From assembly GCA_964631015.1 (NCBI GenBank), contig CAZVXH010000002.1:36-64035 (forward strand): a DNA stretch of 64,000 bases, given 5' to 3'. Below, piece after piece: positions 26,407-48,335 of this stretch (position 1 is the first letter of the stretch; each line of letters starts with the position of its first letter). This stretch comes from an uncultured Candidatus Cloacimonadota bacterium (lineage in GTDB: Bacteria; Cloacimonadota; Cloacimonadia; Cloacimonadales; Cloacimonadaceae). The notes under the pieces were generated by a model. The model had not been told where the DNA came from. It was given only the letters and a program-made list of their open reading frames with translations, and ran no database searches. The translations under genes were made by a program, and so were the position numbers.

Positions 26407-28137
26407 CTATCTGAGTTTCACCACGCGCAGGGGGCGGCTGTTTTGGGCGGACTCGTCTTTGATGAAGTAAATCCCGGCGGGGGTTTCGGGGCTTGGCGTC
26501 CAGCTAAGTTTGCCGTCGCCTTCCAGCGTGGCGAGCTTTTGGCCTTTAAGGTTGTAAATACTGGCCCGCAGTGTTCCGCGGGCGCTTGAGGCCAGCTCAA
26601 GTTTGTCGCTGAAGGGATTGGGCCAGGCGCTGAGCCGCGCCGGCGGCAAGATCGGATCTTCCGCGGGCAGGATGGGCAGGCTGGCGTCCACTATAAAGGG
26701 CACTTGGTAACAACCAAAGCTGTGGGCGAAAGAAATGCTGCCCTGGACCAACTCGCGGAGCCCGCCTTCCACTATAGCCAATTGCACGTGCACGATCAGG
26801 CTCTGGCCGGGTTCCAGGATGCGGGGCGGGGGAGGATAAAAGCCGCATAAAACAATCGCGTCCACCACGTGGTCTGGCGTCCAGCTAATCTGTTCAATGG
26901 TCAGGCTGGTGTCGCTGATATTCACAAGTTCAAAGAGGCGTCCATTCAATACGGCTTCGTTGTTCAAAAAGAAGACCGTATCCGGAACCGCCATCAGATA
27001 CTGGCGGGGTTCGATGTCCACGATGGCGCCTTCGACCACGGTGAGGTTGTAGGGAAACTGGTCCGGCAGCAGGTACCAGCCGCTGTTGGAGCCGCCCCAG
27101 CCGAAATTGATGTGGAAGAATCCGTCGGTATTGTAGCCGTCCACCGCCACGTTGTGGCCGGCGTCTCAGGCCGGCGTAACCACGGCCAGATGGACCGGCC
27201 GGGCGTCTTTGACGTTTTGCGCCATGCGGGTGTAAAGGTCAGGAGCAGTGGCCGCGAGCAGTTCGCTGCCGCTGAAACCGAAGCGTTGAAAAGCAGCGTA
27301 GGCCTGGCTAACGGCGAAAGTGCCGCTGCCTTCGGAGGTGTAAACCTGCTCCGCGGCCACCCCGCAGGCCCAGATCAGCGCGGCGGCATCGGCGGATGTG
27401 GTGGCCTGCTGCAGGGCGTAGTGGGTGGTGAGGGTGTCCAGCGCGGAGTTGAGTTCGGCCCAGGACGGGAAATCGCGCGCGGCGTGGTCGTCATCTATCC
27501 AGAAATTGCGTCCGGCGTAGTTGTGATGATAGTCGTCGGCATCCGAAAATCTCGTTCCGTTCAGGCTTTGGTGGTAGTTGACGATCTGGGCCATGGCCAC
27601 GGCGGGACAGCCGGCCACGCTGCGCTGTCCGGAAACCGGATCGATGGGGCAATCCGCGTTGTAGGGCGCGCTCTGGTGCCATTCGGTTTTGAGCCAGCCT
27701 CCCGAGGGAGAATATCCCGGCGGCGGCCACTGCTGAAAATCGTCGCGGTCAGAAATGGGGTTTTGCCACATCCGGCGGTATCTTGACCGCTCCGCGGGAC
27801 CGGCGCCGGCCTGGCGAAAAGTAAGGTCGGCCGTGATGAGTTCCGCCAGCCAGAGATCGGTGGCGGGGTCAAAATCTGAGGTGAAAGAATAGGCCAGCAC
27901 GGGGGGAAGGTCATCCGCGGCGGCAACAACGATGTAGCCCTGAGGCTGCAGGCCGAAGATCCAGGCCAGCGGGGAATCAACTTCGCCCAGGGGACGTGGC
28001 GGCAACAGGGTTCCGCTGACTTCTAGCCTTTGCAACTGGGCGCGGGCAACACTTTCCGCCTGGGCGGTACTCACGGATTCCGCGTAAATACAGGCGCAGA
28101 GCAGGATCAGCGCCAAACCAAACAAGAGTTTTTTCAT
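26407..28137 (-). pseudogene. C10 (streptopain/SpeB-like) cysteine peptidase with T9SS C-terminal domain, interrupted by one in-frame TGA (27166-27168)
   Basis: The upstream half (27169-28137) has a signal peptide, a prodomain and the Cys motif 'AGCPAVAMAQIVNYH'. The downstream half has the His motif 'DAGHNVAVDGYNTDGFFHINFGWGG' and a T9SS C-terminal domain ('WPNPFSDKLEL...IYNLKGQKLATL...GIYFIKD'). Both halves are in the same frame: '...VHLAVVTPA*DAGHNVAVDGY...'. Confidence 0.7.
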
Positions 28138-28221
28138 GATAACGCTCCTGGATGGTAACAAAGCAGATATTGAACCAATTTGTCAAATAAGTTCCGTGGT
28201 ATGGGTTTAAACACCGTTGGA

Positions 28222-29434: not shown

Positions 29435-30919
29435 TCAGTCCTTGGGATGGTAAAAGACCTTGTAGAGCAGGTCCAGATCACTCAGCAGGCCGGCGTTGTA
29501 GCTTTCATCAGCCTGGGTTTTGGGGCTTGCGATCAGCTGCCAGGAGGAGTCTTTGGCCAGGGTCTGGGCGAGGTTCCACTTGCGTTTGAAGCTCTGCTCC
29601 TCCAGTTGGCTGAGCGTGGTCAGTTGGGCGGGATTCAAGCGCTTGTCCAGTCCGCGTTTTTGCAGCAGTTCCAGTTTCACCAGCAGGGGATGGTTTTCGC
29701 TGATGGCGATGATCTCTTTCGCCTGTTCCGGAGGATAGGCGTTTTCGAAAATGAGTTCCTTGTAGAGCTCCAGTTCGGTTCTGAAAGTGCGCAGATTCAC
29801 GAAGCTTAGCTTGTTGGTGTCGATCCCGCGGCGTTCAATCTCTTTCACCGCGGGCTTGTCCACGCTGTAGGTGAGGGGATGGTAGGCCTCGAGTTCAAAG
29901 ACGTTCTGGGTGATGAAGAGGGTGACGAAGGAGAAGAGGAAGGCCATGGCGGGGGCGGCGATCCAAGCCAGGGTAACCTTGCCAAGCACGTTGTAGCGGA
30001 TGTTTTTGCCGCCCTTGGCGAGTCCGATGCCGAGTACGGCGCCCACGATCACCTGCGTGGAGGAAATGGGAACCAGCGGGATGGGCGGAAGTCCCATCAA
30101 GACAAGCAGATCGTGCAAGGCGCGGGAAGAAAAGAGAAAGAGGACGATGGTTTCGGTGAGCAGGGCGACCAGCGCGGTGGCGGGGGAAAGCTGAAAAATG
30201 TCCTTGCCGACCGTGCCCATCACGCGGTGGGAATAGGTGTAGATGCCCAGTACCACGGCGAGCGCGCCGATGATGTAAAGCTGCTGCACGCCTGTGATGG
30301 AGAGGAAGGGACCGAGGGCCAGATCCCGGAATGGCGTCACCGGAACGAAGACCCCCACGGCGTTGGCGATGGTGTTGGCCCCCAGAAAGTAGGCTCCGAC
30401 AGCGCCGAAAACGATCAACGCGTAACGGATGATCATGTCCTGTTCCAGCAGATGGCGCTTGGAGTTGTTGATCCAGCCGCGCACGATGTAAAAGAGCAGG
30501 GCCGCGATGCCGGCGGAGACTACAAAGGCGGTTACCCAGCTGCTGGCGATGGTGAGCAGGGAATTGAAGTTGGTGAGCCGGCCGGAAAAGTAGTTCCAGC
30601 CGATCAGGGCGCCCACGATGGTCTGCGAGATGGAGACCGGAATGCCCATCCGCACGATCACCAGAATGGCCAGCGCGGCGGCCAGCGCCACGGTGAACGC
30701 GCCGCCCAGGGCGTCCACAGAACCCAGCCTGCCCAGGGTTCCAGAGGGCCCGCTACCTTCCAAAACAGCGCCCAGAAAGTAAAAGATGGCGGCGATCAGA
30801 GCGGCCTGGCGGAATTTGATCATGCGCGTGGACACCGCGGCCCCGAAAATGTTGCCGGTGTCGTTGGCCCCCATGGACCAACCTATAAACAGGCCGCTGA
30901 TCAGAAAAACGAAGATCAT
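29435..30919 (-). CDS. PiT-family inorganic phosphate transporter with a ~170-aa C-terminal soluble extension
   Basis: 'GWSMGANDTGNIFGAAVSTRMI' is a PHO4/PiT signature. The hydrophilic tail begins around 'LEAYHPLTYSVDKPAVKEIERRG'. Confidence 0.9.
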   Translation of the reverse strand: MIFVFLISGLFIGWSMGANDTGNIFGAAVSTRMIKFRQAALIAAIFYFLGAVLEGSGPSGTLGRLGSVDALGGAFTVALAAALAILVIVRMGIPVSISQTIVGALIGWNYFSGRLTNFNSLLTIASSWVTAFVVSAGIAALLFYIVRGWINNSKRHLLEQDMIIRYALIVFGAVGAYFLGANTIANAVGVFVPVTPFRDLALGPFLSITGVQQLYIIGALAVVLGIYTYSHRVMGTVGKDIFQLSPATALVALLTETIVLFLFSSRALHDLLVLMGLPPIPLVPISSTQVIVGAVLGIGLAKGGKNIRYNVLGKVTLAWIAAPAMAFLFSFVTLFITQNVFELEAYHPLTYSVDKPAVKEIERRGIDTNKLSFVNLRTFRTELELYKELIFENAYPPEQAKEIIAISENHPLLVKLELLQKRGLDKRLNPAQLTTLSQLEEQSFKRKWNLAQTLAKDSSWQLIASPKTQADESYNAGLLSDLDLLYKVFYHPKD

Positions 30920-30926
30920 GCCAGGA

Positions 30927-31571
30927 TCAGAGCTGCCTTTTGATGGTGTAGATGGAGAGGCGGTCGCACACGGCCTGGGCGTAATCCGAGATCTGTTCGA
31001 TGTGCAGGGCGAACCAGCGCAGATGGGTTTGCTGCGCCAGGTCCATCTCCTGGGAGAAGATCAGGCGACGCAGCTTTTCGCCCAGCTGGTCGGCCTCGCG
31101 CTCGAAGAAATAGACTTTGTGGATGTAGTTGTTCACTTGGGAAAGGTCGCGGAAAAAGGAACGCACCGCGTAGGTGAGCTGCTCCACCGCGGCTGTGGAA
31201 GCGCGCGTGGTCTGCAGCCAGAGGTCGTTCAGCACTTCCGGGATGCGCGGCATTTCGATGGAAAACTGCATCAGCGTGTCCTTGATGTTGTCCACCACTT
31301 CATCCGTGTTTTCCAGAATGGCCAGCACGTCGCCGCGGTTTTCCGGGATCAGAGTGCGTTCGTAGAGATAGCGCTCGATCGCCACGCGCAGGTCGTCGGC
31401 CTTCTTTTCGTTTTCGCGGATCAGATTTAGCCTCTCTTCGAACTGCTCGAACCTGCCCATCAGATAATCCTCCACGCCAAGCTGGAAAAGCAACGCGGAA
31501 TCGCTGACCACGTCCAGAAAAGTGTCGATCTGCGATTCCACGAACTTGGTGGTCTTCAGCACCAGTGCCAT
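30927..31571 (-). CDS. DUF47/PhoU-like phosphate-transport accessory protein
   Basis: All-helical 214-aa protein directly upstream of PiT, the classic ykaA-pit arrangement. AGGAGA RBS. Confidence 0.7.
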   Translation of the reverse strand: MALVLKTTKFVESQIDTFLDVVSDSALLFQLGVEDYLMGRFEQFEERLNLIRENEKKADDLRVAIERYLYERTLIPENRGDVLAILENTDEVVDNIKDTLMQFSIEMPRIPEVLNDLWLQTTRASTAAVEQLTYAVRSFFRDLSQVNNYIHKVYFFEREADQLGEKLRRLIFSQEMDLAQQTHLRWFALHIEQISDYAQAVCDRLSIYTIKRQL

Positions 31572-34541: not shown

Positions 34542-34625
34542 GCCGGTAGTGTCGCGGACGTGGCCGACCCGTCGATATACGGGATCCGCGCGACCGCAAA
34601 TGAGCAATGAAAGACTGAGGATAAA

Positions 34626-37600
34626 TTGGACAAGATCGAATCCCAGGCCTTGGCGAGCAACCTTGCGCAGACCCAGGTGAAACAGATCGTGCTTTCGCCG
34701 GAAAGCCTGTGGCTGCTTGAACGCAGTGCCGGCTACTACGGCATTCAGCAGCGCACGAAACTTTTTTTGGAAGAGCTGCACCATCCCTTCGCGAACCTCG
34801 ATTCCGCTCTGGAACTGTTGCGCCAAAGCATCATGGGCGATCTCTGGTTCTACGTGCAGCTGGAGGAAAGCGCGCACGCCCTGGAACTGATCCTCGGCAT
34901 TTTCGGCAATATCTTTGCCCGCGCGGCAGAGGAACTGATCAAGCAGCGCTGCCTGAACGAATATCTGGATTTCATCGCCGCCCTGGCAGAGCAGCAGAGT
35001 GTGCCGCAGAGCATTCTGGACCAGGCTTTCGACGTTTTGGAAGACTGGCATTCCCAGGCGCCGGAACTCTTCATCGCCTCTTCCGGACAGTGCCATAAGA
35101 CTTTGCTGCGGCTTTCGGAACGCCTGGGCCGTCAGAACGAGGCTGTGGACCTGCTGCGCTCTGTTTACGAGGCCTCGGTTACACTCTGGCGCTCGCAAGC
35201 GGCCATCGCGGACTGGCACGACAAATACAGCGACCTGGTTTCCCTGGACAAGACGAAACTGGGACAAGCCGTGGGCAAAAAATTCTTCGCGGACTGCCTG
35301 AAGCAACTCAAAGCGGCGCGGACCCTGCAGGATTTCGCCGCCATACCCTCTTTTTCAGCCATTGCCGCCCGCCACCGCGACCTGCTGGCTTCGTTCACCG
35401 GCTTGCCGGAGAAGATCCATTACCTTTTCTACCTCTTGAGTTTACCCACCATGAACGCCCTCAGCGATCATCTGCTCTGGGACCTCAACCGCCTGCTGGC
35501 AGACCTGCACGAATCCCTCTCCGTGAAAGAACTCAACCTGCTGATCGACAGCATCTTCGAGAATCTCACCGAATTCCGCGACCAACACGGCAGCATCGTT
35601 CTGGACTGTGTGCTCACCATCGGGAAAGCCGTGCTGGATCCAAACGAGCCGGAACTCGGTCGCCGCTGCCTGAGCAAGATCATCGACCTCGGCTTCATTC
35701 CGCCCGGGGAGATCAAGATCAACAGCGACTGGCAGATAGTCTCCAACAAAAACCACATCAAGAACATCCGGGCCTGGCTGGATCTGATCAGCATCGACCC
35801 CATCCTTTGCAAGGACCTGCTGGCGGCGCTGATCATCAACCTCACCCAGGGCGGTATCTTCATCTCGGACACCGACCTTTTTCAAAAGGATGTTTCCCAG
35901 TTTCTGAACAGCGACGTCAAACCCCTGTACGTGCAGGTGAAACATCTGCTGCGGCTGTTTCCCGTCTTCTACCACGAGATCGGCGCCGAGGGCGAGATCC
36001 GCGACCTCAGCACCGAGATCGACGAAATGAGCGCCCGCAAGGACCGCCTCATCCATTTTGTGCGCAAACAGGTGCACACTGAAAGCAACAACACCCATAT
36101 CAACCTCCTGCGCCAGATCCTCCATTACTGGACGGACCTGGATCCCAGCCATCTGCAGGGCTTGCTGCCCGAAGACCTGGAACTCTTTGTGCGCAACCCG
36201 GATGAGCGCGCCCTGGCGCAGCAAAAGGCGGTGCGCGGCTTTTTCCGGGACCACCGGACCAGCGTGGAAGATCTGCTGGGCCAATCCTGGCAGGCGGTGG
36301 CTCCGCTGTTCCGGCAGGTAAAGAAGGAGGATTTTTCCCTGCGTCGCCTGGAATTGCTGGTGCGCATTTTCTATATGCTGCTGGACAAATATCAGCTCGA
36401 TCCATATGACATCGCCAAATTTCTGGCCCGCTTCAACTGGTTCGACGAGAAAGAACAGTTGCGCCTCAAGCAGAGCCTTGCCCGCCGGGATTTCGACAGC
36501 GGCATCCGCCAGATGCTGGATTACATCGGCCGCCTGAACCAGGTTATCCTGGACCCCAGCCCCACCCAGGCCTGGGAAAACATCTACTACAAACGCCACA
36601 TCGCGGCTGGCATCCCCTCCATGTACGGCCAGTACCGCGAACCGAAGCTCGAGGCCATGGGCATGATCTTCCGCCTGGAAAACCTGGTGGAACGTCTGGT
36701 TGAGCAAAACATCAAACAGCTGAATCTGGATTACATCACGGCCAAGACCCTCAAGCGCATCATCCGCATCCTTGAGCTCTTCGAACTCGGCCTGGCCCGG
36801 GAAGGCCTCACCAGCGAAGCTTTTTCCAGCGCCCTGCAGATGCTCAAATCCGGGCAGAGGATCGTCAACCTCTCTCTGGACCAGTATCTGGACCTCTTCA
36901 AACAGATCAAGGACAGCATCACCGAGCTGATCAACGAATACTTCTATCGCTTTTACGAGCAGGAACTTGAGCATGCCCCGGTGAAAGGCGGGGCCGGCAA
37001 ATACAAACGCCAGACCGCGCAGCAGATGTTCGCCGAGGAGTTTTTCCGCAAGCTGCTGGCCTCCTCCTTTCTGGTGCAGCCGATGGACAATTTCATCGCC
37101 CAGATCCTGGTCTCGTTGGACGCCATGAAACAGGTCTTCGGTTCCGCCGAACTCAGCCGCGTGATGAGCTACGATCCAGACCTGATGTTCATTCCGCTGC
37201 AAACCAACAACGGCAGCCTCGACAACCAGGTGCTGCTGGGCTCCAAAGCATTCTTCCTCAAGAAGATGCGTCAATACGAATTCCCCATCCCGCCCGGTTT
37301 TGTGATCACCACCGAACTGTACCGCTTCAGCCATATCGTGCGCTCACATCCCGGCATCGAACGCGAAATGGACGAATTGCTCCGCTTCAACATCGCCCGC
37401 CTGGAAAGCCAGACCGGCCTCCGTTACGGCGATCCGGAAGCGCCGCTGCTCTTTTCCGTAAGGTCCGGGGCTCCCATGAGCCTGCCCGGCGCGATGACCA
37501 CTTTCCTCAATATTGGCCTCAACGACGAGGTCACCCTCAAACTCAGCGCCCTGCCAAATTACGGCTGGACCGCCTGGGATTGCTACCGCCGCCTGATCCA

Positions 37601-38693
37601 AAGCTGGGGCATGGCTTACGGCATCGACCGTGACGAGTTCGACGCCGTGATGATCGCTTTCAAGCGCCGCCACAAGGTTAAGCTCAAAACCCAGTTCACG
37701 CCTTTGCAGATGCGGCAGATGTCCACAGCCTACAAAAAGGTGCTGGCCCGTCACAAGCTGGAGTTCGAGCAGGACGTTTTCCTGCAGGTGAAGCAGGCCA
37801 TCCTGCACGTGCTGGATTCCTGGAATACCGATCGCGCCAGGCTTTACCGCCAGAAACTGCAGATCGCCGACGACTGGGGCACCGCCGTCACCATCCAGAA
37901 AATGGTGCTGGGCAATATCAGCCTGGATTCCGGCACCGGCGTACTCTTCACCCACGCGCCCTGGAGCAAGGCGCCGGGGATCACTCTGAACGGAGACTTC
38001 ACCCTTTGCAGCCAGGGTGAGGACGTGGTGGCCGGGCTGGTGCACACTTTGCCGATCTCGGAGCAGGAACGCAAACAGGCCAAGCAAAAGGTGGAACACT
38101 CTCTGGAAAAGGATTTTCCCCAGATCTACACCCGTCTGCTCAGCCTGGCCCATCAGCTTCTTGACGAGCGCGACTATCCCCATCAGGAGATGGAATTCAC
38201 TTTCGAAGGCCCCACCCGGGACCAGCTTTACGTCCTCCAAACCCGCAACCAGGTGATCACCAAAGCCCGCGCCTACACAGTTTTTAACGTTCCCAAGCGC
38301 GATCTGAAGCCCCTCGGCAACGGCATCGGCATCGGCAAAGGCGTCATCAACGGCCTCATCGCCATTTCCAGAGCGGACATCGACGCCCTCAGGGACCGCG
38401 GCCAGCCGCTGATCCTGGTGCGGCCGGACACCGTTCCCGAGGACATGGAACTGCTCTTCGACTGCCAGGGCCTGCTCACCTCGCGCGGCGGCGTTACTTC
38501 CCACGCCGCGGTCACAGCCATCCGCCTCGGTTTGGTGGGCATCGTCAACTGCCGTAAGCTCAAGGTGTTCGAGGACGAAAATCACTGTCGCATCGGCGAA
38601 ACCCTGCTCAAACCTGGAGCTGAGATCGCCATCGATGCCAGCAGCGGCGCCATCTATCTGGGCCACTATCCGGTGGAAACCATTCGCAGCTAA
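34626..38693 (+). CDS. 1355-aa PEP-utilising-enzyme-like protein: unknown ~840-aa helical N-terminus + PPDK_N-type ATP-grasp + swivel phospho-His domain, with no PEP/pyruvate TIM barrel
   Basis: TTG start with an AGGA RBS. 'LLGSKAFFLKKMRQYEFPIPPGFVITTE', 'LLFSVRSGAPMSLPGAMTTFLNIGLND' and 'GTAVTIQKMVLGN' are PPDK nucleotide-binding motifs. 'LLTSRGGVTSHAAVTAIRLG' is the mobile-domain His motif (His codon 38502-38504). The ORF ends about 60 aa later. Confidence 0.8.
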   Translation: MDKIESQALASNLAQTQVKQIVLSPESLWLLERSAGYYGIQQRTKLFLEELHHPFANLDSALELLRQSIMGDLWFYVQLEESAHALELILGIFGNIFARAAEELIKQRCLNEYLDFIAALAEQQSVPQSILDQAFDVLEDWHSQAPELFIASSGQCHKTLLRLSERLGRQNEAVDLLRSVYEASVTLWRSQAAIADWHDKYSDLVSLDKTKLGQAVGKKFFADCLKQLKAARTLQDFAAIPSFSAIAARHRDLLASFTGLPEKIHYLFYLLSLPTMNALSDHLLWDLNRLLADLHESLSVKELNLLIDSIFENLTEFRDQHGSIVLDCVLTIGKAVLDPNEPELGRRCLSKIIDLGFIPPGEIKINSDWQIVSNKNHIKNIRAWLDLISIDPILCKDLLAALIINLTQGGIFISDTDLFQKDVSQFLNSDVKPLYVQVKHLLRLFPVFYHEIGAEGEIRDLSTEIDEMSARKDRLIHFVRKQVHTESNNTHINLLRQILHYWTDLDPSHLQGLLPEDLELFVRNPDERALAQQKAVRGFFRDHRTSVEDLLGQSWQAVAPLFRQVKKEDFSLRRLELLVRIFYMLLDKYQLDPYDIAKFLARFNWFDEKEQLRLKQSLARRDFDSGIRQMLDYIGRLNQVILDPSPTQAWENIYYKRHIAAGIPSMYGQYREPKLEAMGMIFRLENLVERLVEQNIKQLNLDYITAKTLKRIIRILELFELGLAREGLTSEAFSSALQMLKSGQRIVNLSLDQYLDLFKQIKDSITELINEYFYRFYEQELEHAPVKGGAGKYKRQTAQQMFAEEFFRKLLASSFLVQPMDNFIAQILVSLDAMKQVFGSAELSRVMSYDPDLMFIPLQTNNGSLDNQVLLGSKAFFLKKMRQYEFPIPPGFVITTELYRFSHIVRSHPGIEREMDELLRFNIARLESQTGLRYGDPEAPLLFSVRSGAPMSLPGAMTTFLNIGLNDEVTLKLSALPNYGWTAWDCYRRLIQSWGMAYGIDRDEFDAVMIAFKRRHKVKLKTQFTPLQMRQMSTAYKKVLARHKLEFEQDVFLQVKQAILHVLDSWNTDRARLYRQKLQIADDWGTAVTIQKMVLGNISLDSGTGVLFTHAPWSKAPGITLNGDFTLCSQGEDVVAGLVHTLPISEQERKQAKQKVEHSLEKDFPQIYTRLLSLAHQLLDERDYPHQEMEFTFEGPTRDQLYVLQTRNQVITKARAYTVFNVPKRDLKPLGNGIGIGKGVINGLIAISRADIDALRDRGQPLILVRPDTVPEDMELLFDCQGLLTSRGGVTSHAAVTAIRLGLVGIVNCRKLKVFEDENHCRIGETLLKPGAEIAIDASSGAIYLGHYPVETIRS

Positions 38694-38727
38694 GAATTTT
38701 TCAAAATAAACAGACAAGGAGTATCGC

Positions 38728-39981
38728 ATGAACCTCGACCTGAGAAACAAAAAACTGCTCGGGATCAATGGACTCGGCCGGATCGGCAAGCTGCTGCTCT
38801 GGAATCAGATCCATCTCCGCCATTTTGACGGGATCGTCGTCAATTGCGGCCGCGAAGTTGGTAAAACCCTGGATGACCTCATCCAGGTGCTCGAAACCGA
38901 CTCCACCTACGGCAGCATCCACAAATTCCTCTTCGGCATGGTCGGCCGCAAGGCCGCGATCCAGGTTTTGGATCCCGACAAGCCCCTGCTCTCCATCGAA
39001 GGCATACCGGTAAAAATTCTCCGCAGCGCCCGCGATCCCAAGGACATTAACTGGCTGAACGAAGGTGTGCGTGTCGTGGTGGATTGCACGGGCAGTTTCG
39101 TGGATCCGAACGCCACCCCTGAACAGGGCAAACCCTGTCTGCGCGGCCATTTGGAAGCCGGCGCGCTGAAAGTGATCTGCTCCGCCCCTTTCAAGAGCAA
39201 AACTGCCGGCGTCACCAGCCATGCGGACGCCCTCACCCTGATCTATGGGATCAACCACCTGAACTACAAGCCTTCCGAACATCACTTGATCTCAGCCGCC
39301 AGCTGTACCACCACCGGACTAGCCCATTTGGTGAAGCCCCTGCTGGAAAACGAGGCCACCGCCAACATCATGACCGCCTCCATGAGCACCATCCACGCGG
39401 CCACCAACACCCAGAGCATCCTGGATTCCGTGCCCAAGGCCGGCGCCACCGACCTGCGCAAAACCCGCAGCGTGCTTAACAACATCATCCTCTCCACCAC
39501 CGGCGCTGCCAAAGCCCTCGAACTCGTGCTGCCGCAGATCAAATCCGTGGGCTTCATGGCCGACTCCGTGCGCGTTCCCACTTCCACGGTTTCGCTGATC
39601 AACCTCAATGTGACCTTCCACACCGAACTTAACGATATGGGCCAGCCGCTGGTGAACCGCCGCCTCATCAACGAGATCTACAAACAGGCCGCGGAAGGCC
39701 CGCAAAAGGGATTGCTGGTCTATTCAGAACGTCAGAACGTCTCCGCCGACCTTATCGGAAGCATGGCCGCCGCCACCCTTGAGGCCCACGAAACTCACAC
39801 CCGCACCAGCTTCATACCCGTTCCCCGCCAGACTCTTGCCGCCCTGGGAGTGGAAGCCGGCCGCGAAGTGACCATGCCCGTAACCCACGCCAAGATCTTC
39901 GGCTGGTACGACAACGAACTCGGCTCCTACACCAACTCCCTTTCCCGCCTGGTGAACTATATCGAATCCAGCACGCCCTGA
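38728..39981 (+). CDS. gap: glyceraldehyde-3-phosphate dehydrogenase-like enzyme, atypically long (417 aa)
   Basis: 'GINGLGRIGK', catalytic 'SAASCTTTG' (Cys codon 39304-39306), 'STIHAATNTQ', 'ILSTTGAAKALELVLPQ', 'RVPTSTVSLINL'. AAGGAG RBS. Confidence 0.8.
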   Translation: MNLDLRNKKLLGINGLGRIGKLLLWNQIHLRHFDGIVVNCGREVGKTLDDLIQVLETDSTYGSIHKFLFGMVGRKAAIQVLDPDKPLLSIEGIPVKILRSARDPKDINWLNEGVRVVVDCTGSFVDPNATPEQGKPCLRGHLEAGALKVICSAPFKSKTAGVTSHADALTLIYGINHLNYKPSEHHLISAASCTTTGLAHLVKPLLENEATANIMTASMSTIHAATNTQSILDSVPKAGATDLRKTRSVLNNIILSTTGAAKALELVLPQIKSVGFMADSVRVPTSTVSLINLNVTFHTELNDMGQPLVNRRLINEIYKQAAEGPQKGLLVYSERQNVSADLIGSMAAATLEAHETHTRTSFIPVPRQTLAALGVEAGREVTMPVTHAKIFGWYDNELGSYTNSLSRLVNYIESSTP

Positions 39982-40009: not shown

Positions 40010-40034
40010 GCCCCCGGTTTCGGGGGCTTTTTTA
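40010..40034 (+). terminator. intrinsic terminator after the gap-like gene
   Basis: GCCCCCG-GTTT-CGGGGGC followed by TTTTTTA. Confidence 0.75.
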
Positions 40035-40118
40035 TCTCCACCTTCTCCACTCACAAGTGATCAATGCTCTGTTTTCTCCGCTTGCCAATGCCTCCGTATC
40101 CGAAATCTCCCTGTTTTT

Positions 40119-40400
40119 AAAAACATTTGCTTTTCCCTTGCTTTTGCTCTGCTTTTCTCTGTGTTAAGAAGACCTCTGTGTCCTCCCCATCTCTGTGTCT
40201 CTGTGTTAAAAAAACCTCTCTGTTATCTCATGCCTCGGAATGAATTCCGGGCAGCCAACAGACTAAAGTCTATGTTACTCAAAACTCTGTCCCTCTGTCT
40301 CTCTGTTTTTAAAAAAAAACCTCTGCTTTTACTCCGCTTTTGCTCTGCTTTTCTCTGTGGTTTAAAAATCTCTGTGGTTTAAAAAACTCTGCTTTAAAAA
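40119..40400 (-). repeat. CACAGAG-rich element, inverted counterpart of 29118-29420
   Basis: Contains the reverse complement of the 29.1-kb sub-repeats ('GCTTTTGCTCTGCTTTTCTCTGTGTTAA..GACCTCTGTGTC.TCCCC.TCTCTGTGTCTCTGTGTTAAA'). It also contains the revcomp of the spacer ('CCTCTCTGTTATCTCATGCCTCGGAATGAATTCCGGGCAGCCAACA'). Confidence 0.85.
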
Positions 40401-42614
40401 TCTGCGCCGCAGCAGGTTGGCATTGCTCACCACGGTCACGGAACTCGTGGCCATGGCGATCTCCGCGATCACCGGATGCAGCGCTCCGAACACCGCGAGG
40501 GGGATGGCCACCAGATTGTAGAAGAAGGCCCAGAACAGGTTTTGCCGGATCTTTTTGAATGTTTCCACGGACAGCCGCACCGCCTGTGGGATCAGTTCCA
40601 GCTTGTCACGCAGGATGGTTATGTCCGCCGCTTCGATGGCTATGTCGGTACCCTGGCCCATGGCGATGCCGATATCGGCCAGTTTCAGCGCCGGAGCGTC
40701 GTTGATGCCGTCGCCCACCATGGCCACCGGACCGTATTCCGCGCGGAGTTCGCCTATGATCCTGGCTTTGTCGGCCGGCAGCGCCCGTGCCCGTATTTTG
40801 CTGATTCCGCACTGCGCGGCGATCGCGGCGGCGGTATCCTCGTTGTCCCCGCTCAGCATGATGCTCTCGATGCCCATGTCCCTGAGGGTGTTAACCACTG
40901 TGATCGCCTCCGGACGCACAGTGTCGGCCAGGTAAAACACGCCCAACACTTTGGCCTGATCTGCCATCCAGACCTTGCTGGCGTGTTTCAGCTCCGCCTC
41001 TTCCGGCAGTTCATCCAGACCGCTCACGCCCTCTTCCCGCAGCAGTGAACTGCTTCCCAGCCAGAGCTTGCGCTCTCCGAGAGTGGCGGAAACTCCCCGC
41101 CCGCTGTGGCTCATGAAATCAGTGGCTGGCAGGGCTGACAGCCCTTGTTCTCGCGCGGCGGCCACGATCGCTTTCGCCAGCGGATGCTCGCTGGCGGTTT
41201 CCAGGCTCAGCGCCAGACTCAGGGCTTCTGCATCCGGTATGCCAACCCCCTTGTATTTCAATAGCTTGGGTTTGCCGTGGGTGAGGGTGCCCGTTTTGTC
41301 GAACACCATCGCCCGGATGTCTTTCATCCCTTGCAGGGCTTCGCCGTTGCGGATCAGGATGCCGCGTTCGGCCCCCAGACCGCTACCCACCATCAAAGCC
41401 GTGGGTGTGGCCAGTCCCAGGGCGCAGGGACAGGCGATCACCAAAGTGGCGATGGCGGCCATCAGGGCGGCCGCGAGACCGGTTTTCGCGCTGCTGAGCG
41501 GGATCAGCAGACGCAGCCAGTTGCCCACGGAGAGCATCGTTTCAGGCCAGAGCAGCCAGGCCGCGAAGGTCAGAGCGGCCAGCACCAGCACCACCGGCAC
41601 GAACACTGCCGTAACTTTGTCCGCCAGCATTTGCACCGGCACCCGCGAATGCTGGGCGTCCTGCACCATCTTTACCACCTGAGCCAGGAAACTGTCCCGG
41701 CCAATCTTGTCCGCCCGGGCTTGAAAATATCCGTCCAGATTGACCGTGGCCCCCGTCACCCGGTCTCCGGCCTCTCGCCGCGCCGGCATCGATTCGCCCG
41801 TGACCATCGATTCATCGAGGTTCGCGGCTCCCTCCACGATCACGCCGTCCGCGGGAACCTTCGCTCCGGGCTTCACAATAAAAATGTCGCCCACCTTGAT
41901 CTTGTGGATGGCCACCTCGGTTTCAACTCCGTCTATCAGCAGCAGAGCGGTTTTCGCGCCCAGATTGAGCAGTTTGCGGATCGCTTCGGAGGCTTTGCCG
42001 CGCGCCCGGCTTTCCAGATAGCGCCCGGTGAGATGGAAGGCCAGGATCATGGCCGCGATGCCGCTGAAGTCGTGAGGATCGACGCCTTTCACCACCAGCG
42101 ACAGCGGCGTCACCAGCAAAGACGCCAGAGTGCCCAGGGCGATCAGCACATCCATGTTCGCGCTGCCGGAACGCACTGATTTGAAGGCTGATACGTATAC
42201 TCCCCGGGCGGGGAAGATCATCCCCAGCAGGGTGAGGCCAAAGATGAGCCAAACTCCCTCGTGATGCCAGCTGGGCATGGGTTTGACGAGCATAAGCGGA
42301 AACATCAGCGCCATGGCGATCAGCGCCACCGCCCAGATCCACCCCATCCTGGTCTTCGCGCCAAGCATGTTCTTGATCTGCGCGTCTTCTTCCAAAACAG
42401 GACTTTCCCGCACCGAGAAGCCCAACGCCGTGATCGCTTTGGTAAAATCCTCTTCGCGCACCAGCCGGTCGTCAAATTCGATCGCGGCCTCTTCCATGGC
42501 CAGGTTCACCTGAGCCGCGCTTACACCCTTCATTTTGGCCAAAGCCTTCTCCGTGCGCGCGCTGCAGGCGGCGCAGTGCATCCCGTCAATGCCCAGGTTT
42601 ATCTGTCTTTTCAT
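40362..42614 (-). CDS. copA: copper-translocating P1B-type ATPase
   Basis: HMA domain 'GMHCAACSARTEKAL', CPC motif 'ACPCALGLATP', 'DKTGTLT', 'GDGINDAPAL'. AGGAAG RBS. Confidence 0.95.
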   Translation of the reverse strand: MKRQINLGIDGMHCAACSARTEKALAKMKGVSAAQVNLAMEEAAIEFDDRLVREEDFTKAITALGFSVRESPVLEEDAQIKNMLGAKTRMGWIWAVALIAMALMFPLMLVKPMPSWHHEGVWLIFGLTLLGMIFPARGVYVSAFKSVRSGSANMDVLIALGTLASLLVTPLSLVVKGVDPHDFSGIAAMILAFHLTGRYLESRARGKASEAIRKLLNLGAKTALLLIDGVETEVAIHKIKVGDIFIVKPGAKVPADGVIVEGAANLDESMVTGESMPARREAGDRVTGATVNLDGYFQARADKIGRDSFLAQVVKMVQDAQHSRVPVQMLADKVTAVFVPVVLVLAALTFAAWLLWPETMLSVGNWLRLLIPLSSAKTGLAAALMAAIATLVIACPCALGLATPTALMVGSGLGAERGILIRNGEALQGMKDIRAMVFDKTGTLTHGKPKLLKYKGVGIPDAEALSLALSLETASEHPLAKAIVAAAREQGLSALPATDFMSHSGRGVSATLGERKLWLGSSSLLREEGVSGLDELPEEAELKHASKVWMADQAKVLGVFYLADTVRPEAITVVNTLRDMGIESIMLSGDNEDTAAAIAAQCGISKIRARALPADKARIIGELRAEYGPVAMVGDGINDAPALKLADIGIAMGQGTDIAIEAADITILRDKLELIPQAVRLSVETFKKIRQNLFWAFFYNLVAIPLAVFGALHPVIAEIAMATSSVTVVSNANLLRRRFLKQSFLNHRDF

Positions 42615-43006: not shown

Positions 43007-43138
43007 CACAAAACCGTGTCACAAATCTTTCTTACATAGTGTGGATCAAGTTTTATCCACTCGCTGAACTCGCGAAACCAGACCCGGGAATCAGTGAAAA
43101 CGCACAAAATACAAACCCATAAGGAGATAGAAAGGACC

Positions 43139-46100
43139 ATGAACAGAAGGAAGATCCTGCTGACCGTATTGCTTGTCATCTTTGGCACGCTCGGTTTGGC
43201 GGCCGCGCCGCGCTTTGGCGAACGGCCTTTCATCGACATTTATCAGGTTCCTGACAGCGCCATCGAACAGGGGCACATCAGGATCAAGCTCAGCGAGGAC
43301 CATTCCGCGCTGGCCCAAAGTTTTCAATATCAAAACGGCGCTCTGGCCAGCTTCGGCATCGAAGAACTGGACGCCCTCAACCTTCAGTACGGGATCAAGA
43401 AGATCAGCCCGGTTTTCGGCGACGTGAGCAAGAACCTCAAGTGGGGCTGGCGTCACGTGGAATGGGGCCTGCATCTTTGGTTTGAACTGGATTACGACAG
43501 CGCCGCGGACATCCGCGAGATCGTGCTGGCCTACCGCGGCCTGAAAACCAATGTGCAGTGGGCCGAGCCCGAATACAAGAAAACCCTGCTTTCCCTCAAC
43601 CAGGATGAGGTTTCCGCCCTCGCTGAAACCATCAGCCGCTGGACCCCGAACGACCCGCGTTACGGCGAACAGTGGCACTACAACAACACCGGCCAGACCA
43701 GCGGAACCATCGATGCCGACATCGACCTGCCCGAGGCCTGGGACATCGAGAAAGGCCATCCGGACGTGATCGTGGACGTGCAGGACGGAGGCTTCCAAAC
43801 CGACCATCCCGACCTCAACGGCAACCTCTGGAACAATCCCGGCGAAATTGCCGGCAACGGGATCGACGATGACGCCAATGGTTATATCGACGATATTTAT
43901 GGCTATAACTTTGTAAACAGCAACGCGACCATAGTGGGTCATTACCACGGCACCCACGTATCCGGCACGATCGCTGCCGAATCCAACAACTCCACCGGAG
44001 TGTCCGGCGTCGCCGGTGGTAATGGAACCACGCGCGGAGTCAGCCTGATGTCCACCCAGGTGTTCACAGATGCCTCGAGCGGTGGCTTTGAAACCGCTCC
44101 CGTCTACGGCGCGGACAACGGCGCCGCCATCTCCCAGAACAGCTGGGGCTATACCAGTGTGGGAGCCTATGATCAGGTGGTGCTGGACGCCATCGACTAT
44201 TTTAACGCCAACGGCGGCGGTGCCGTGATGAACGGCGGCATCACCATTTACGCGGCCGGAAACAGCGAGTCATCCGGCCAGTGGTATCCCGGCTGCTACA
44301 GCGGTGCCTTCGCCGTGGCCGCCACCACCCACAACGACACCAAAGCCTGGTACTCGAACTATGATACCTGGGTGGATGTCTCAGCCCCCGGCGGAGAAAC
44401 ATCTGTGACAGCGCAGGGCGTGCTGAGCACCTATACTGGAAGCGGTTATGACTTCCTGCAAGGTACTTCGATGGCCTGCCCCCACACCTCCGGCGTGGCC
44501 GCTCTGGTGCTTTCTTATGCCCACCGCAACGGCCGCACCCTCTCCAATACTGAATTGGCCAATATAATCCGGAATACCACCGACAACCACTACGCTGCGA
44601 ACCCAGGCTACATTGGGCAATTGGGTACCGGGCGCATCAATGCCTACCAGGCTTTGCTGGCCACCGATCCCACCCTGCCCTCGGTTACCATCACCGCGCC
44701 CATCAATGGTTCTGTGTACGATCTCAACAGCAGCATCACCATCACCGCCACCGCCACGGATACCGACGGCACGGTCACCGGCGTGGCCTTCTATATCGAC
44801 GATGTGCTGCAGATTACCGACACCTCCAGCCCCTACAGCTGGGTCTGGAATACCACCGGTTACAGCGGCGGATCGCACGTTATCAAAGCCATCGCCACGG
44901 ATAACGACAGCCACACCGCCACCAGCACGGTCACCGTCACCCTGCTGGCTCCTCCGGATGAAGGTTTTGAGACCGGCAACTTCTCCGCATTTGCCTGGAA
45001 CAACAGCAGCGCGATACCGTGGACGGTGCAGAGCGTGGATAAGTTCTCCGGCACCTATGCCGCCAAGAGCGGCGCCATAAGCTCCAGCGGCAGCACCACC
45101 CTCAGCCTGCCTGTGGTGGTTAGCAGCGCCGGAAACATCAGCTTCTGGTACAAGGTGTCCTCCGAATCCAGCTACGACTGGCTGCGCTTCTATGTGGACG
45201 ACGTACAGCAGGGCCAGTGGTCCGGCTCAGCGGGCTGGGCCGAAGCTTCCTATGCCGTTGGCTCAGGACCGCACACCTTGTCCTGGACCTATTCCAAAGA
45301 CGGCTCTGTGAATACCGGCAGCGACTGCGCCTGGCTGGACCACATCATCTTCCCCCCGATGGGTGCCTACTATGCCCCGCCGCGAAACCTGACCGCCACT
45401 TCCGGCAATGCCGTGGTAAATCTTGCCTGGCAGGCTCCCGCCTCCGGAACTCCCACCGGCTACCGGATCTACCGCGACGGCAACCTGCTCACCACAGTTA
45501 CCGGACTCACTTACACCGACAGCGCCGTGGTGAATGAAACCACCTATAGCTACTACGTAACCGCGGTCTACAGCGGAGGGGTTTCCGATCCCTCCAACAC
45601 CGTGACTGCCTTCCCCACCACCAATCCCCTTGCCACCATCATCATCGGCGAAGGCACGGGATCGCAGACCTACCCCATCGACCGCTATTACAACTATTCC
45701 GGCCATGAAGCCATCTACCTGGCCGATCAGATCGGCACCGCCTGCAACATCAAGTCCCTGGGCTTTTACAAGTCCAGCGGCGTTAATGTGGCCCCTATCG
45801 AGGCAGTGACCATCTACATGAAACACACCACTGAATCATCCCTGGCCACCGGCAATTACAGCACCACCGGCTACACCCAGGTCTTCAGCGGAAACTTCCC
45901 GAACACCGCGACCTCCGGCTGGATGGAGGTGGAGCTGAACAGCCTCTTCGCTTACAACGGAACTTCCAACCTGGCCATCCTGACCATCAAAGGCAACCAG
46001 GCCTATATATCCGATTATCCCTATTGGACCTACAGCACCACTACTGGCACCCAAGCCCGTCAGGCCCACAGCGACTCCGCCCAGCCCCTATCCCTGACAG

Positions 46101-48181
46101 CCTCCACCAATCTGCCCAACCTGAAGCTGCAGGCCTACTTACCCGCCGGTGTCCTCTATCCCGCGCGGAACCTCACTGCGGCAGGCGGTAATGGCTTTGT
46201 CCTGCTGAACTGGATCGCTCCTTTCAGCGGAACCCCCACCGGCTACAAGATCTACCGGAACGGCAGCCTGCTGACCACCGTTACGGGGCTCACATACACC
46301 GACAACGCCGTGGTGAACGGCAGCACCTACTCCTACTATGTGGTGGCAACCTATTCTGGTGTAGACGCTGATCCCACCGCCACCGTTCAGGCCACGCCAC
46401 AATTGGTGACTTCCGCCATCATCGGCGATGGGGCCGGCAGCGGCGGAACCTCGGAAGCCTGTCCGATCAACGTGTACTATCAGAGCCTGCACGGCCAGGC
46501 CGTCTATACCAAAGCCGAGTTAAACGCCAAAGGCGTGTTCGGGCCTATCGACATCTCTCAGATCGGCTTCAATGTGACCGGCTTGCCCAGTCTCGCCATG
46601 CCCAACTACCTCATCCGCATGGGCCACACCAGCGCCGTAGATGTTGCCACTTGGATCTCCACTGGTCTCAGCCCTGTCTGGAACGCTGCCTCCTATCAAC
46701 CCACCGCGACCGGCTGGAACATGCTAACTCTGGCGACCCCCTTCACCTGGAACGGCAACGACAATATCGTGCTGGACACCGGCTTTGGCCTGATCGGTTC
46801 CTGGAACTCGAGCGGAACAACGCAGTACACATCCGTGACCAACGGCTACCGCTACGTGCGCAGCGATACAGTCGACCAGACAGATATCTTTACTGGCGGC
46901 TCAGCCACAGTCTACCGTCCAAACCTGCAACTAACTCTGGCGCCTGAAGTGGTGCAAGCCCCCGAGATCGTGGTTTCGCCTCTGACCCTGGATTTCGGCG
47001 CCGTCCTGGTAGGCAGCACCGGAGTGCTGCAGTTCACCGTGCAAAACACCGGCACAGCCGCGCTGACAGGCTCGATAAGCACCCCGCTTGGCTATACCGT
47101 GTCCCAGGTGATCGCCAAAGGCGTCAGCTCCGCCCCTGAAAGGTCCGCCGTTCCCAGCGGCAAGAGCGCGCCCGCTCTGGAAACCCAGCGCAATACCCTC
47201 ACCCTCAGTGTGCCGGCTGGTCAGAGCGTTGTCTACAACCTCAGCTTCGCTCCCACCTTGGCGCAAGCCTATCCCGGCAACGTGACCATCAGCAGCAATG
47301 ATGCCGATGAACCCACGGTCAACATCGCCATCACCGGCAGCGGCTACACCGACCCCAGCATCAGCGTGAACCCCACCAGCCTCATCTCCACCCTGCCCGT
47401 GAACGGCGGAGAAAACCTCAGCTTCCACATTGGCAATTCCGGCAGCCTGAACCTCGAGTTCACCGTCACGGAAACACCCTCCGCGGACTGGCTAAGCTTC
47501 TTCCCGCCCCTCGGAACGGTGTCGCAAGGTGCTTCACAGGAAGTGGTGGCCAGCTTCAACGCCACCGGCCTCGCCCCCGGCCAATATCAGACCACCCTCA
47601 ACGTCGCCTCCAATGATCCGGAAACCCCCCTGCTGGCAGTCACTGTGACCCTCAACGTCACCAACAACGCCCCCACCCTCAGTCTGCCTCAGGAAGGGTT
47701 CCAGTTCGACATGAATTCCACCCTGCAGGTGGATTTTAGCCAATATATCGCGGATCTGGATGGTCACACAGTCACCCTTACCGTTGGTGAGAGCGACTTC
47801 ATCCAGGCTTCCATCGTCGGACACTTGGTCACTTTCTCCGCGCCGGCCGATTGGTTCGGCAGCGAGATCCTGAACTTCGTGGTGGATGACGGCTACGCGG
47901 TTGGCTTCGGTTCCGTGACGGTCACAGTCAACCTCAATTACCTGGCTGTGCCAAACGTCACCGTCGTCAAATCCGCCGGCGGAGTCACCGTCTCCTGGGA
48001 CAATGTGGCCAACGCCAACCGCTACCATATCTACCGCGCCACCGATCCCTACGGCAATTACGGCACTCTGCCCTTCGCCACGGTGCTCGCGCCAAATTCC
48101 AGCTGGGAGGACACCGAAGTCCTGCCCATGGCCTTCTACAAGGTTGTGGCGGCTTTTGAGGAACTTCCCGCCAAACAATAA
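43139..48181 (+). CDS. giant secreted S8 (subtilisin-like) serine peptidase, 1680 aa, with Ig-like, MAM-like, 2x FN3, 2x unknown module and an FN3-like tail
   Basis: Signal peptide 'MNRRKILLTVLLVIFGTLGLAAA'. Catalytic triad contexts 'VDVQDGGFQTDHPDL', 'HGTHVSGTIAA' and 'GTSMACPHTSGVAAL'. Confidence 0.9.
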   Translation: MNRRKILLTVLLVIFGTLGLAAAPRFGERPFIDIYQVPDSAIEQGHIRIKLSEDHSALAQSFQYQNGALASFGIEELDALNLQYGIKKISPVFGDVSKNLKWGWRHVEWGLHLWFELDYDSAADIREIVLAYRGLKTNVQWAEPEYKKTLLSLNQDEVSALAETISRWTPNDPRYGEQWHYNNTGQTSGTIDADIDLPEAWDIEKGHPDVIVDVQDGGFQTDHPDLNGNLWNNPGEIAGNGIDDDANGYIDDIYGYNFVNSNATIVGHYHGTHVSGTIAAESNNSTGVSGVAGGNGTTRGVSLMSTQVFTDASSGGFETAPVYGADNGAAISQNSWGYTSVGAYDQVVLDAIDYFNANGGGAVMNGGITIYAAGNSESSGQWYPGCYSGAFAVAATTHNDTKAWYSNYDTWVDVSAPGGETSVTAQGVLSTYTGSGYDFLQGTSMACPHTSGVAALVLSYAHRNGRTLSNTELANIIRNTTDNHYAANPGYIGQLGTGRINAYQALLATDPTLPSVTITAPINGSVYDLNSSITITATATDTDGTVTGVAFYIDDVLQITDTSSPYSWVWNTTGYSGGSHVIKAIATDNDSHTATSTVTVTLLAPPDEGFETGNFSAFAWNNSSAIPWTVQSVDKFSGTYAAKSGAISSSGSTTLSLPVVVSSAGNISFWYKVSSESSYDWLRFYVDDVQQGQWSGSAGWAEASYAVGSGPHTLSWTYSKDGSVNTGSDCAWLDHIIFPPMGAYYAPPRNLTATSGNAVVNLAWQAPASGTPTGYRIYRDGNLLTTVTGLTYTDSAVVNETTYSYYVTAVYSGGVSDPSNTVTAFPTTNPLATIIIGEGTGSQTYPIDRYYNYSGHEAIYLADQIGTACNIKSLGFYKSSGVNVAPIEAVTIYMKHTTESSLATGNYSTTGYTQVFSGNFPNTATSGWMEVELNSLFAYNGTSNLAILTIKGNQAYISDYPYWTYSTTTGTQARQAHSDSAQPLSLTASTNLPNLKLQAYLPAGVLYPARNLTAAGGNGFVLLNWIAPFSGTPTGYKIYRNGSLLTTVTGLTYTDNAVVNGSTYSYYVVATYSGVDADPTATVQATPQLVTSAIIGDGAGSGGTSEACPINVYYQSLHGQAVYTKAELNAKGVFGPIDISQIGFNVTGLPSLAMPNYLIRMGHTSAVDVATWISTGLSPVWNAASYQPTATGWNMLTLATPFTWNGNDNIVLDTGFGLIGSWNSSGTTQYTSVTNGYRYVRSDTVDQTDIFTGGSATVYRPNLQLTLAPEVVQAPEIVVSPLTLDFGAVLVGSTGVLQFTVQNTGTAALTGSISTPLGYTVSQVIAKGVSSAPERSAVPSGKSAPALETQRNTLTLSVPAGQSVVYNLSFAPTLAQAYPGNVTISSNDADEPTVNIAITGSGYTDPSISVNPTSLISTLPVNGGENLSFHIGNSGSLNLEFTVTETPSADWLSFFPPLGTVSQGASQEVVASFNATGLAPGQYQTTLNVASNDPETPLLAVTVTLNVTNNAPTLSLPQEGFQFDMNSTLQVDFSQYIADLDGHTVTLTVGESDFIQASIVGHLVTFSAPADWFGSEILNFVVDDGYAVGFGSVTVTVNLNYLAVPNVTVVKSAGGVTVSWDNVANANRYHIYRATDPYGNYGTLPFATVLAPNSSWEDTEVLPMAFYKVVAAFEELPAKQ

Positions 48182-48198
48182 CCAGATCTGAAACAATG

Positions 48199-48237
48199 GC
48201 CCGGCCTGTTCCCTGGTGAATTGGCCGGGTTTTTTTT
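48199..48237 (+). terminator. intrinsic terminator after the S8 gene
   Basis: CCCGGCC...GGCCGGG stem followed by T8. Confidence 0.8.
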
Positions 48238-48254
48238 ACCCCCGGGAAAGGTTG

Positions 48255-48315: not shown

Positions 48316-48335
48316 TTCACTTCAAAGGATCGATC

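Follow-up and report, generated by a model that had tools for sequence, protein, structure and literature searches.

What does an enzyme of the pyruvate, phosphate dikinase (PPDK) type phosphorylate when it has no domain for pyruvate or phosphoenolpyruvate (PEP)? The question is raised by a 64,000-nucleotide stretch of DNA from an uncultured Candidatus Cloacimonadota bacterium (contig CAZVXH010000002.1, positions 36 to 64,035; hereafter the window). Here a dikinase-like gene (34626..38693, + strand, TTG start) encodes a 1355-aa protein without a TIM barrel, and the next gene encodes an unusually long paralogue of glyceraldehyde-3-phosphate dehydrogenase (GAPDH; 417 aa, 38728..39981, + strand). 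The best explanation of the evidence below is that the two genes constitute a conserved two-enzyme metabolic module, in which the dikinase-like protein probably carries out a hitherto undescribed reaction at the GAPDH step of sugar metabolism. The dikinase chassis itself is known; what is new is its combination with a new putative acceptor domain and a dedicated GAPDH partner.

The dikinase-like protein and its catalytic half

An RBS-like GAGGA (RBS, ribosome-binding site) at 34617-34621 lies 4 bases 5' of the TTG start. In the 1355-aa protein, Pfam assigned residues 912-1214 to PPDK_N (PF01326, 93 bits) and residues 1261-1341 to the PEP-utilizers mobile domain (PF00391, 51 bits), and found no PEP-utilizers_C TIM barrel (PF02896). 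In phmmer searches of PDB sequences, PPDK residues 10-342 aligned to query residues 863-1213 and PPDK residues 13-511 to 861-1347. Three parts can be distinguished on the + strand: an N-terminal domain without known relatives, which is the proposed phospho-acceptor site (N-domain; residues 1-860, 34626..37205); a PPDK-type ATP-grasp nucleotide-binding domain (residues ~861-1214, 37206..38267); and a swivel phosphohistidine domain of the PEP-utilizers mobile type (residues ~1230-1349, 38313..38672), which aligns to PPDK 391-510. The predicted phospho-carrier His1293 (codon 38502..38504, +) lies in GGVTSHAAV, within TSRGGVTSHAA, and is the equivalent of PPDK His455. The stop codon TAA (38691-38693) comes 62 codons past His1293, which places the C-terminus at PPDK position ~510-515, the end of the His domain. 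In this protein, the TIM barrel is replaced by a helical N-domain of ~860 aa. An initial annotation, made from the letters of the window alone, had described the 1355-aa reading frame with its ATP-grasp and swivel-His motifs and the His codon at 38502-38504, and had noted that the frame ends ~60 aa past the His motif with no PEP/pyruvate domain; the Pfam and PDB alignments agree with it on each count. It had also called the N-terminus unknown, which stands, and had given its size as ~840 aa, which is corrected here to ~860 aa.

Is the barrel-less architecture authentic? The 3' end of the dikinase-like gene is covered by contigs of four independent metagenome runs, which show substitutions only in the coding part and keep the stop codon; the sole indel among them is intergenic, after 38694. 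A search of 5.8 billion proteins retrieved full-length relatives of 1335-1400 aa with identities down to 43%, the closest being 85-92% identical to the window protein. These closest matches, along with the many giant secreted proteases, mark the window as part of a Cloacimonadota genome of wastewater origin. A genome scan with one genome per species located the gene, with the ~1350-aa architecture, in at least 568 genomes, which belong to about 8 phyla; it occurs at full length and 39-92% identity in Cloacimonadota, Geobacteraceae, Bacillota, Bacteroidota, Ignavibacteria, Calditrichales and CSSED10-310. The best 80 loci comprise 32 from Cloacimonadota, 18 from Bacteroidota, 11 from Bacillota, 10 from Geobacteraceae/Deltaproteobacteria, 3 from CSSED10-310, one each from Ignavibacteria and Calditrichales, and 4 others. 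Truncation or an assembly artefact is ruled out by the stop codon in four independent assemblies together with the homologues in hundreds of genomes. A frameshift hiding a downstream TIM barrel, a concern raised in the initial annotation, was found neither in the independent assemblies nor in the architecture across phyla. The family is real and under selection. Some distant members of ~1450-1540 aa (P0163, P0168) carry an extra N-terminal hemerythrin (HHE) domain. Several members of the distant clade are encoded beside cytochrome oxidase genes, which extends the family beyond strict anaerobes.

The same observations bear on the explanation that the protein is a split PPDK, with its TIM barrel supplied in trans by another gene, or simply a truncated or mis-assembled one. 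Such an origin would agree with the database names of the homologues ('pyruvate, orthophosphate dikinase' or 'PEP/pyruvate-binding domain-containing protein') and with a catalytic half that is closest to PPDK. However, the stop codon is confirmed in the four assemblies, in hundreds of genomes the protein stops exactly where the His domain does, and neither a conserved neighbour other than GAPDH nor a PEP-utilizers_C gene was found in the annotated loci. A split PPDK would also leave the conserved 860-aa N-domain unexplained. We regard this explanation as poorly supported and highly improbable.

The catalytic half was compared with the known dikinase families. The top NCBIfam match was PPDK (TIGR01828) with 344 bits, below the cutoff of 843; PEP synthase models matched with 55-69 bits (TIGR01418, 55 bits vs a cutoff of 740), and the rifamycin-inactivating phosphotransferase model NF041857 with 33 bits vs a cutoff of 999. 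In a PDB search with a 60-sequence profile, PPDK scored 361 bits vs 27.6 bits for rifampicin phosphotransferase (RPH; 5HV1). Based on the alignment to Clostridium symbiosum PPDK, K22, R92, G101, E323, Q335, R337 and His455 of PPDK correspond to K874, R946, G955, E1190, Q1205, R1207 and His1293, respectively, and D321 corresponds to E1188, Asp being replaced by Glu. These positions are the known nucleotide, Mg and phosphate binders of PPDK. In alignments of 30 and 60 sequences, these PPDK-equivalent residues and His1293 are all invariant. Because the nucleotide and phosphate residues and the His are kept without exception, the formation of phosphohistidine (His~P) from ATP is very likely retained, and we consider it probable that the protein is an active His-phosphotransfer chassis. 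The first partial reaction is probably that of PPDK, ATP + Pi + His → His~P + AMP + PPi (Pi, phosphate; PPi, pyrophosphate), and the protein is predicted to work like a dikinase.

Which dikinase, then? With PPDK (EC 2.7.9.1; C. symbiosum 1DIK/1KBL) the 1355-aa protein shares an ATP-grasp domain and a swivel His alignable over PPDK ~10-510. In contrast to PPDK, it has no C-terminal PEP/pyruvate TIM barrel and therefore cannot be PPDK; it has the extra 860-aa N-domain, and its C-terminal His domain sits on a single linker. With RPH (PDB 5HV1/5FBS), YvkC and PigC/RedH it shares the theme of an ATP-grasp and swivel-His chassis joined to a non-barrel acceptor domain. Whereas RPH is arranged as ATP-grasp, RIF domain and His, the order here is N-domain, ATP-grasp and His; the RPH acceptor domain is unrelated to the N-domain by Foldseek, the RPH structures not being among the matches; and the genomic context is central metabolism, unlike the resistance or pigment clusters of RPH and its relatives. 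The RPH-like layout proposed in the initial annotation thus holds for the architecture only, since the sequence is of PPDK type (344 vs 33 bits) and the domain order differs. Could the protein nevertheless be a xenobiotic or antibiotic phosphotransferase of the RPH kind, with the N-domain binding a drug? The combination of ATP-grasp, swivel His and non-barrel domain would fit, as would weak NCBIfam matches to RPH, PigC and RedH models. However, the RPH scores lie far below both the model cutoff (33 vs 999 bits) and the PDB score of PPDK (27.6 vs 361 bits), Foldseek did not retrieve the RIF-binding domain, and the gene recurs in many phyla beside a partner from central metabolism and lacks the patchy distribution of a resistance gene. 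This explanation is poorly supported, and we assign it very little probability. Since the defining features of each were looked for and not found, the 1355-aa protein is not PPDK, PEP synthase or RPH.

The N-terminal domain

The identity of the acceptor depends on the N-domain, for which structural models were built. AlphaFold2 modelled residues 1-860 from a 60-sequence alignment with a pLDDT (predicted local distance difference test) of 84.9 and a pTM (predicted template-modelling score) of 0.75, and the conserved core 355-860 from 72 sequences with a pLDDT of 89.4 and a pTM of 0.87. The model is almost wholly alpha-helical, with a single beta-hairpin at residues 650-671. Pfam and NCBIfam matched nothing in residues 1-860, nor did searches of PDB sequences with the single sequence or with the 60-sequence profile. 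Foldseek against the PDB returned only noise for the 860-aa model (template-modelling score (TM) <0.2; best E 6.6e-4, to solenoid proteins) and a best E of 0.29, again with TM <0.2, for the core model. The N-domain is thus a confidently modelled domain for which Foldseek found no structural relative in the PDB, in keeping with the earlier description of a large helical region of unknown identity.

Among 1.84 billion representative proteins, the N-domain was found in 430 clusters. Fragments aside, it essentially always occurs in proteins of 1335-1540 aa with identical architecture; no stand-alone or otherwise fused N-domain was found in this set, and the sole variation is the added hemerythrin domain. 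A distant clade of ~1460-aa members keeps the invariant residues of the N-domain down to 23% identity. Across 72 sequences, which include this clade at 23-27% identity, 30 positions are invariant, mainly Asp, Arg, Lys and His: W369, H377, D415, Q420, G453, A454, R459, D466, D473, R480, K481, H484, W502, K588, Y589, K656, R657, H658, A660, G662, I663, P664, S665, G668, E672, K674, R683, Q753, R808 and D821. They cluster in short motifs, SDTDLFQKD, EIGAEGEIRD, RKQVHTESNN and YYKRHIAAGIPSMYGxYxEPK. Such a pattern would fit the binding pocket of an anionic ligand better than it would a simple scaffold. The initial annotation had left the domain as either substrate-binding or regulatory; the ~30 invariant charged or polar residues favour the former, and a merely regulatory role is less favoured.

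What would a regulatory role look like? The protein might be a regulatory or phosphorelay protein whose N-domain binds a protein partner, possibly the GAPDH, with His1293 phosphorylating that partner or sensing energy charge or redox state. The helical subdomain of Enzyme I of the phosphotransferase system binds HPr and offers an analogue. The N-domain is all-helical, its whole-domain Foldseek matches are to solenoid-type scaffolds (though at noise level), some distant members carry the N-terminal hemerythrin sensor domain, and adjacency to GAPDH would suit a protein target. However, ~30 invariant, mostly charged residues grouped in short motifs are what one would expect of a pocket for catalysis or ligand binding more than of an interface, nothing of the PPDK catalytic apparatus has been lost, and besides GAPDH forms no conserved gene surrounds the dikinase in the loci examined. 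We regard a regulatory protein as an improbable alternative to an N-domain that binds a substrate.

The long GAPDH and its adjacency to the dikinase

The spacer between the two genes (38694..38727, +) is 34 nt long, contains no terminator, and carries AGGAG at 38717-38721, 6 nt before the GAPDH ATG. Downstream of the pair, an intrinsic-terminator-like hairpin, GCCCCCG-GTTT-CGGGGGC (40010-40027), followed by TTTTTTATCT (the whole at 40010..40037, +), closes the two-gene unit; it is the only G+C-rich terminator-like hairpin on the + strand after the gene pair. Metatranscriptome contigs cross the spacer, one of them 100% identical to the window, with the proviso that their RNA nature is partly guessed and that DNA carry-over is possible. 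Both the 34-nt distance and the single terminator had been read correctly in the initial annotation, and the co-transcription it considered plausible is supported by these contigs and by the conservation of the adjacency, which it had suggested checking across genomes.

Indeed, among the 67 informative loci, defined as those with enough downstream DNA, 62 from several phyla have the long GAPDH gene directly 3' of the dikinase gene, with a median gap of ~50 nt, and 8 further shorter loci show the start of a long GAPDH gene there. Four of the five exceptions are from Bacteroidota, where a canonical type I GAPDH gene adjoins the dikinase gene instead. In Bacteroidota, Ignavibacteria and CSSED10 loci, some of them without a long GAPDH, the gene immediately upstream of the dikinase encodes a canonical type I GAPDH of 333 aa; several loci from these groups have the order canonical gap, dikinase, long gap. 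The gene for phosphoglycerate kinase (pgk) usually follows gap, and the loci with an upstream gap put the dikinase in this pgk-like position. When contexts were searched from the long GAPDHs, two of three had the dikinase upstream. No other conserved neighbour (pgk, tpi, a TIM-barrel protein or a regulator) was seen in the loci examined, in which only GAPDH genes recur. The divergence of the dikinase and that of the long GAPDH are correlated (Spearman 0.88), as expected for any gene pair of the same genome, and we give this little weight. Besides the downstream long GAPDH and the upstream canonical one, a third, independent form of the link is a 349-aa GAPDH encoded downstream of one member of the distant ~1460-aa clade. 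Functional coupling of the dikinase-like protein to the GAPDH reaction is, in our judgment, likely.

In two loci, L063 (13586-14746) and L089 (7133-8296), the next gene after the pair encodes a SerA-like 2-hydroxyacid dehydrogenase whose C-terminus is of the ACT type. They derive from a Calditrichales genome and a related metagenome contig and are the sole loci with such a follower. Being of the 3-phosphoglycerate (3-PG) dehydrogenase type, it hints at 3-PG as a shared metabolite.

What kind of GAPDH is the partner? The protein contains Gp_dh_N (PF00044) and Gp_dh_C (PF02800), both above cutoffs, with the catalytic Cys193 (39304-39306, +) and His223 (39394-39396, +) and the anion-site positions T226, R244, K245, R247 and R282; the initial description of a GAPDH-like protein of 417 aa with its Cys at residue 193 was accurate. 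It follows the type I pattern, having both domains and the equivalents of Cys149/His176, the anion-site Thr179, Arg231 and Thr208-Gly209. Cys193, His223, Thr226, Arg244, Arg247, Arg282 and TTG 257-259 are kept in all 63 long GAPDHs compared. The window protein departs from the canonical form in length (417 aa vs ~330 aa), in its score against NCBIfam TIGR01534 (304 bits vs a cutoff of 367), and in ~85 aa of insertions that are conserved within its family and include a ~30-aa block at residues 355-387. It also departs at the cofactor site. Asp32 of GAPDH excludes NADP, and Asp occupies this position in 9 of 10 neighbouring canonical GAPDHs. In the long GAPDHs the position is never Asp (0 of 63) and is instead Cys, Ala, Val, Thr or another residue, with an invariant Gly-Arg after it; the window protein has Cys at position 40, then G41-R42. 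Since the NAD-specifying Asp32 is absent, the long GAPDH probably accepts NADP(H), as anabolic GAPDHs do. The NADP-dependent gluconeogenic GAPDH of the Bacillus subtilis GapB type likewise lacks Asp32; it differs from the long GAPDH, whose cofactor use is predicted from the sequence, in having neither the ~85 aa of insertions nor Lys in place of Arg195.

A proposed reaction at the GAPDH step

How might the two enzymes work together? In the reading that we prefer as a whole, the dikinase uses His1293 to hand phosphate over to an acceptor that the N-domain binds, and works with the GAPDH; we advance it tentatively, judging its chance to be somewhat short of even. At the ATP-grasp site, ATP, probably together with Pi, would pyrophosphorylate and then phosphorylate His1293, freeing AMP and PPi. 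The C-terminal His domain, on its one linker, would then swing over to the N-domain, where His1293~P would give its phosphoryl group to, or in reverse take it from, a small anion among the metabolites of the GAPDH step. The preferred acceptor would be the carboxylate of 3-PG, according to 3-PG + ATP + Pi ↔ 1,3-bisphosphoglycerate (1,3-BPG) + AMP + PPi, in which case the protein would be an alternative to phosphoglycerate kinase (PGK) built as a dikinase. The long GAPDH would reduce the acyl phosphate to glyceraldehyde-3-phosphate (GAP) or, in the glycolytic direction, supply it, and its insertions may dock it on the dikinase.

Several known systems make this chemistry conceivable. Transfer from His~P to a carboxylate, giving an acyl phosphate, is the chemistry of succinyl-CoA synthetase and ATP-citrate lyase, which we regard as mechanistic analogues only: they too combine an ATP-grasp with a mobile phosphohistidine and pass the phosphoryl group to a carboxylate. 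By established knowledge, however, succinyl-CoA synthetase converts ATP to ADP and is not a dikinase, and its acceptor domain has no detectable homology to the N-domain. An acyl-phosphate kinase paired with a GAPDH-like reductase is the pattern of Ask/Asd, ProB/ProA and ArgB/ArgC. With PGK of gap-pgk operons, the dikinase-like protein shares the place beside gap and the proposed net interconversion of 3-PG, 1,3-BPG and GAP, whereas PGK uses ADP and the dikinase-like protein is predicted to use AMP/PPi and lacks PGK homology. From textbook values, the ∆G0' of 1,3-BPG + AMP + PPi → 3-PG + ATP + Pi is ~ -4 kJ/mol, so the reaction would be feasible both ways. The succinyl-CoA synthetase precedent, the kinase/reductase pairing, the pgk-like place by gap and the near-equilibrium energetics are the reasons for preferring 3-PG/1,3-BPG. 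Read from the gene neighbourhood, this acceptor is possible rather than probable. The specific picture of a '3-phosphoglycerate, phosphate dikinase' on a new-fold acceptor domain, forming a channelling pair with a dedicated NADP-type GAPDH, is on balance unlikely. A search of the full-text literature found no description of the family, nor of a PPi/AMP-linked 3-PG kinase.

The closest competitor keeps the enzyme and changes the acceptor group. The dikinase could phosphorylate a hydroxyl on a C3 acid or triose, such as glycerate, glyceraldehyde or dihydroxyacetone, and thereby feed the neighbouring GAPDH. Such a 'triose/glycerate, phosphate dikinase' would be wasteful yet irreversible, with glucan water dikinase (GWD) as its analogue. 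The identical evidence of gene neighbourhood fits such an enzyme, the many basic residues of the N-domain would suit small acids, and the barrel-less dikinase relatives GWD and RPH phosphorylate hydroxyls. However, it would leave unexplained a dedicated, insertion-bearing GAPDH without Asp32 where a canonical GAPDH would be sufficient, and the place of the dikinase after gap in Bacteroidota clusters mimics pgk. We consider this hydroxyl kinase rather unlikely.

Further points weigh against a 3-PG dikinase. Gene neighbourhood is the sole guide to the acceptor, and since the relatives just named phosphorylate plain hydroxyls, a hydroxyl of a triose or glycerate could also be used. The position of the classical Arg195 is Lys in 55 of the 63 long GAPDHs, and the substrate of the long GAPDH could therefore differ from GAP/1,3-BPG. 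The use of Pi/PPi is assumed because the protein is closer to PPDK than to PEP synthase. Of five contexts from the distant ~1460-aa clade, just one has a GAPDH (349 aa, downstream), and the neighbours in the rest mostly have no relation to it (cytochrome oxidase, HAD hydrolase, radical SAM); conversely, one long GAPDH has no adjacent dikinase and a canonical gap beside it. Finally, because glycolysis is reported to be otherwise complete in Cloacimonadota (bioRxiv 10.1101/2025.11.11.687785; PMC12590816), PGK is probably present, and the dikinase-like protein would be no obligatory replacement for it.

Other genes of the window complete the description of the locus. A PHO4-family phosphate transporter and its PhoU_div/DUF47 partner (29435-31571, -) are encoded a short way upstream of polA and the dikinase gene; other genomes do not keep this pair beside the dikinase. 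On the other side, a CopA-type copper/heavy-metal P-type ATPase with an N-terminal HMA domain (40362-42614, -) converges on the GAPDH terminator. Very large secreted proteases form a cluster (12695-18694, -; 43094-48181, +; 48216-55064, +; 10858-12693, -; 37-1347, +) that includes C25 gingipain-like proteins (1999 and 2282 aa), a 1695-aa S8 subtilase with Ig/fn3 repeats, an M14 carboxypeptidase and, at the window start, a further C25 fragment; these giant secreted proteases fit the protein-fermenting lifestyle of Cloacimonadota. A streptopain-like Peptidase_C10 gene (26407-28161, -) is seemingly split over two reading frames, one (27166..28161) with the I69 prodomain and C10 profile positions 1-159 of 194, the other (26407..27150) with positions 171-194 and a Por secretion tail; a frameshift or stop interruption, or a sequencing error, is the likely cause. 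A 475-aa reading frame (60345-61772, -) has a glycine-cleavage H domain in its last ~120 residues only and is overlapped on the opposite strand by one with Phos_pyr_kin/PfkB matches (60786-61817, +). Probably one of these frames is drawn too long or is a shadow frame.

What does the module mean for these organisms? Whatever its substrate, a large uncharacterised enzyme family is defined here, which carries a confidently modelled domain without a structural relative and represents another re-use of the dikinase chassis. An immediate consequence is a warning for annotation. Homologues of the barrel-less protein are named 'pyruvate, orthophosphate dikinase' by JGI and NCBI, and metabolic reconstructions of Cloacimonadota use 'PPDK' to replace a missing pyruvate kinase, counting it in 91-95% of genomes (bioRxiv 10.1101/2021.10.08.463351; PMC12590816). 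A module acting at the GAPDH/3-PG node would bring a new reaction into the part of metabolism that is conserved best, and would alter the bookkeeping of energy and PPi in models of anaerobic-digester syntrophs and fermenters (Cloacimonadota, Bacteroidales, Clostridia, Geobacteraceae). If 3-PG is indeed the acceptor, the dikinase and its GAPDH would constitute a third energetic bypass of trunk glycolysis/gluconeogenesis in many anaerobic phyla, beside those of PPDK/PEP synthase and of PPi-dependent phosphofructokinase (PPi-PFK)/fructose-bisphosphatase (FBPase).

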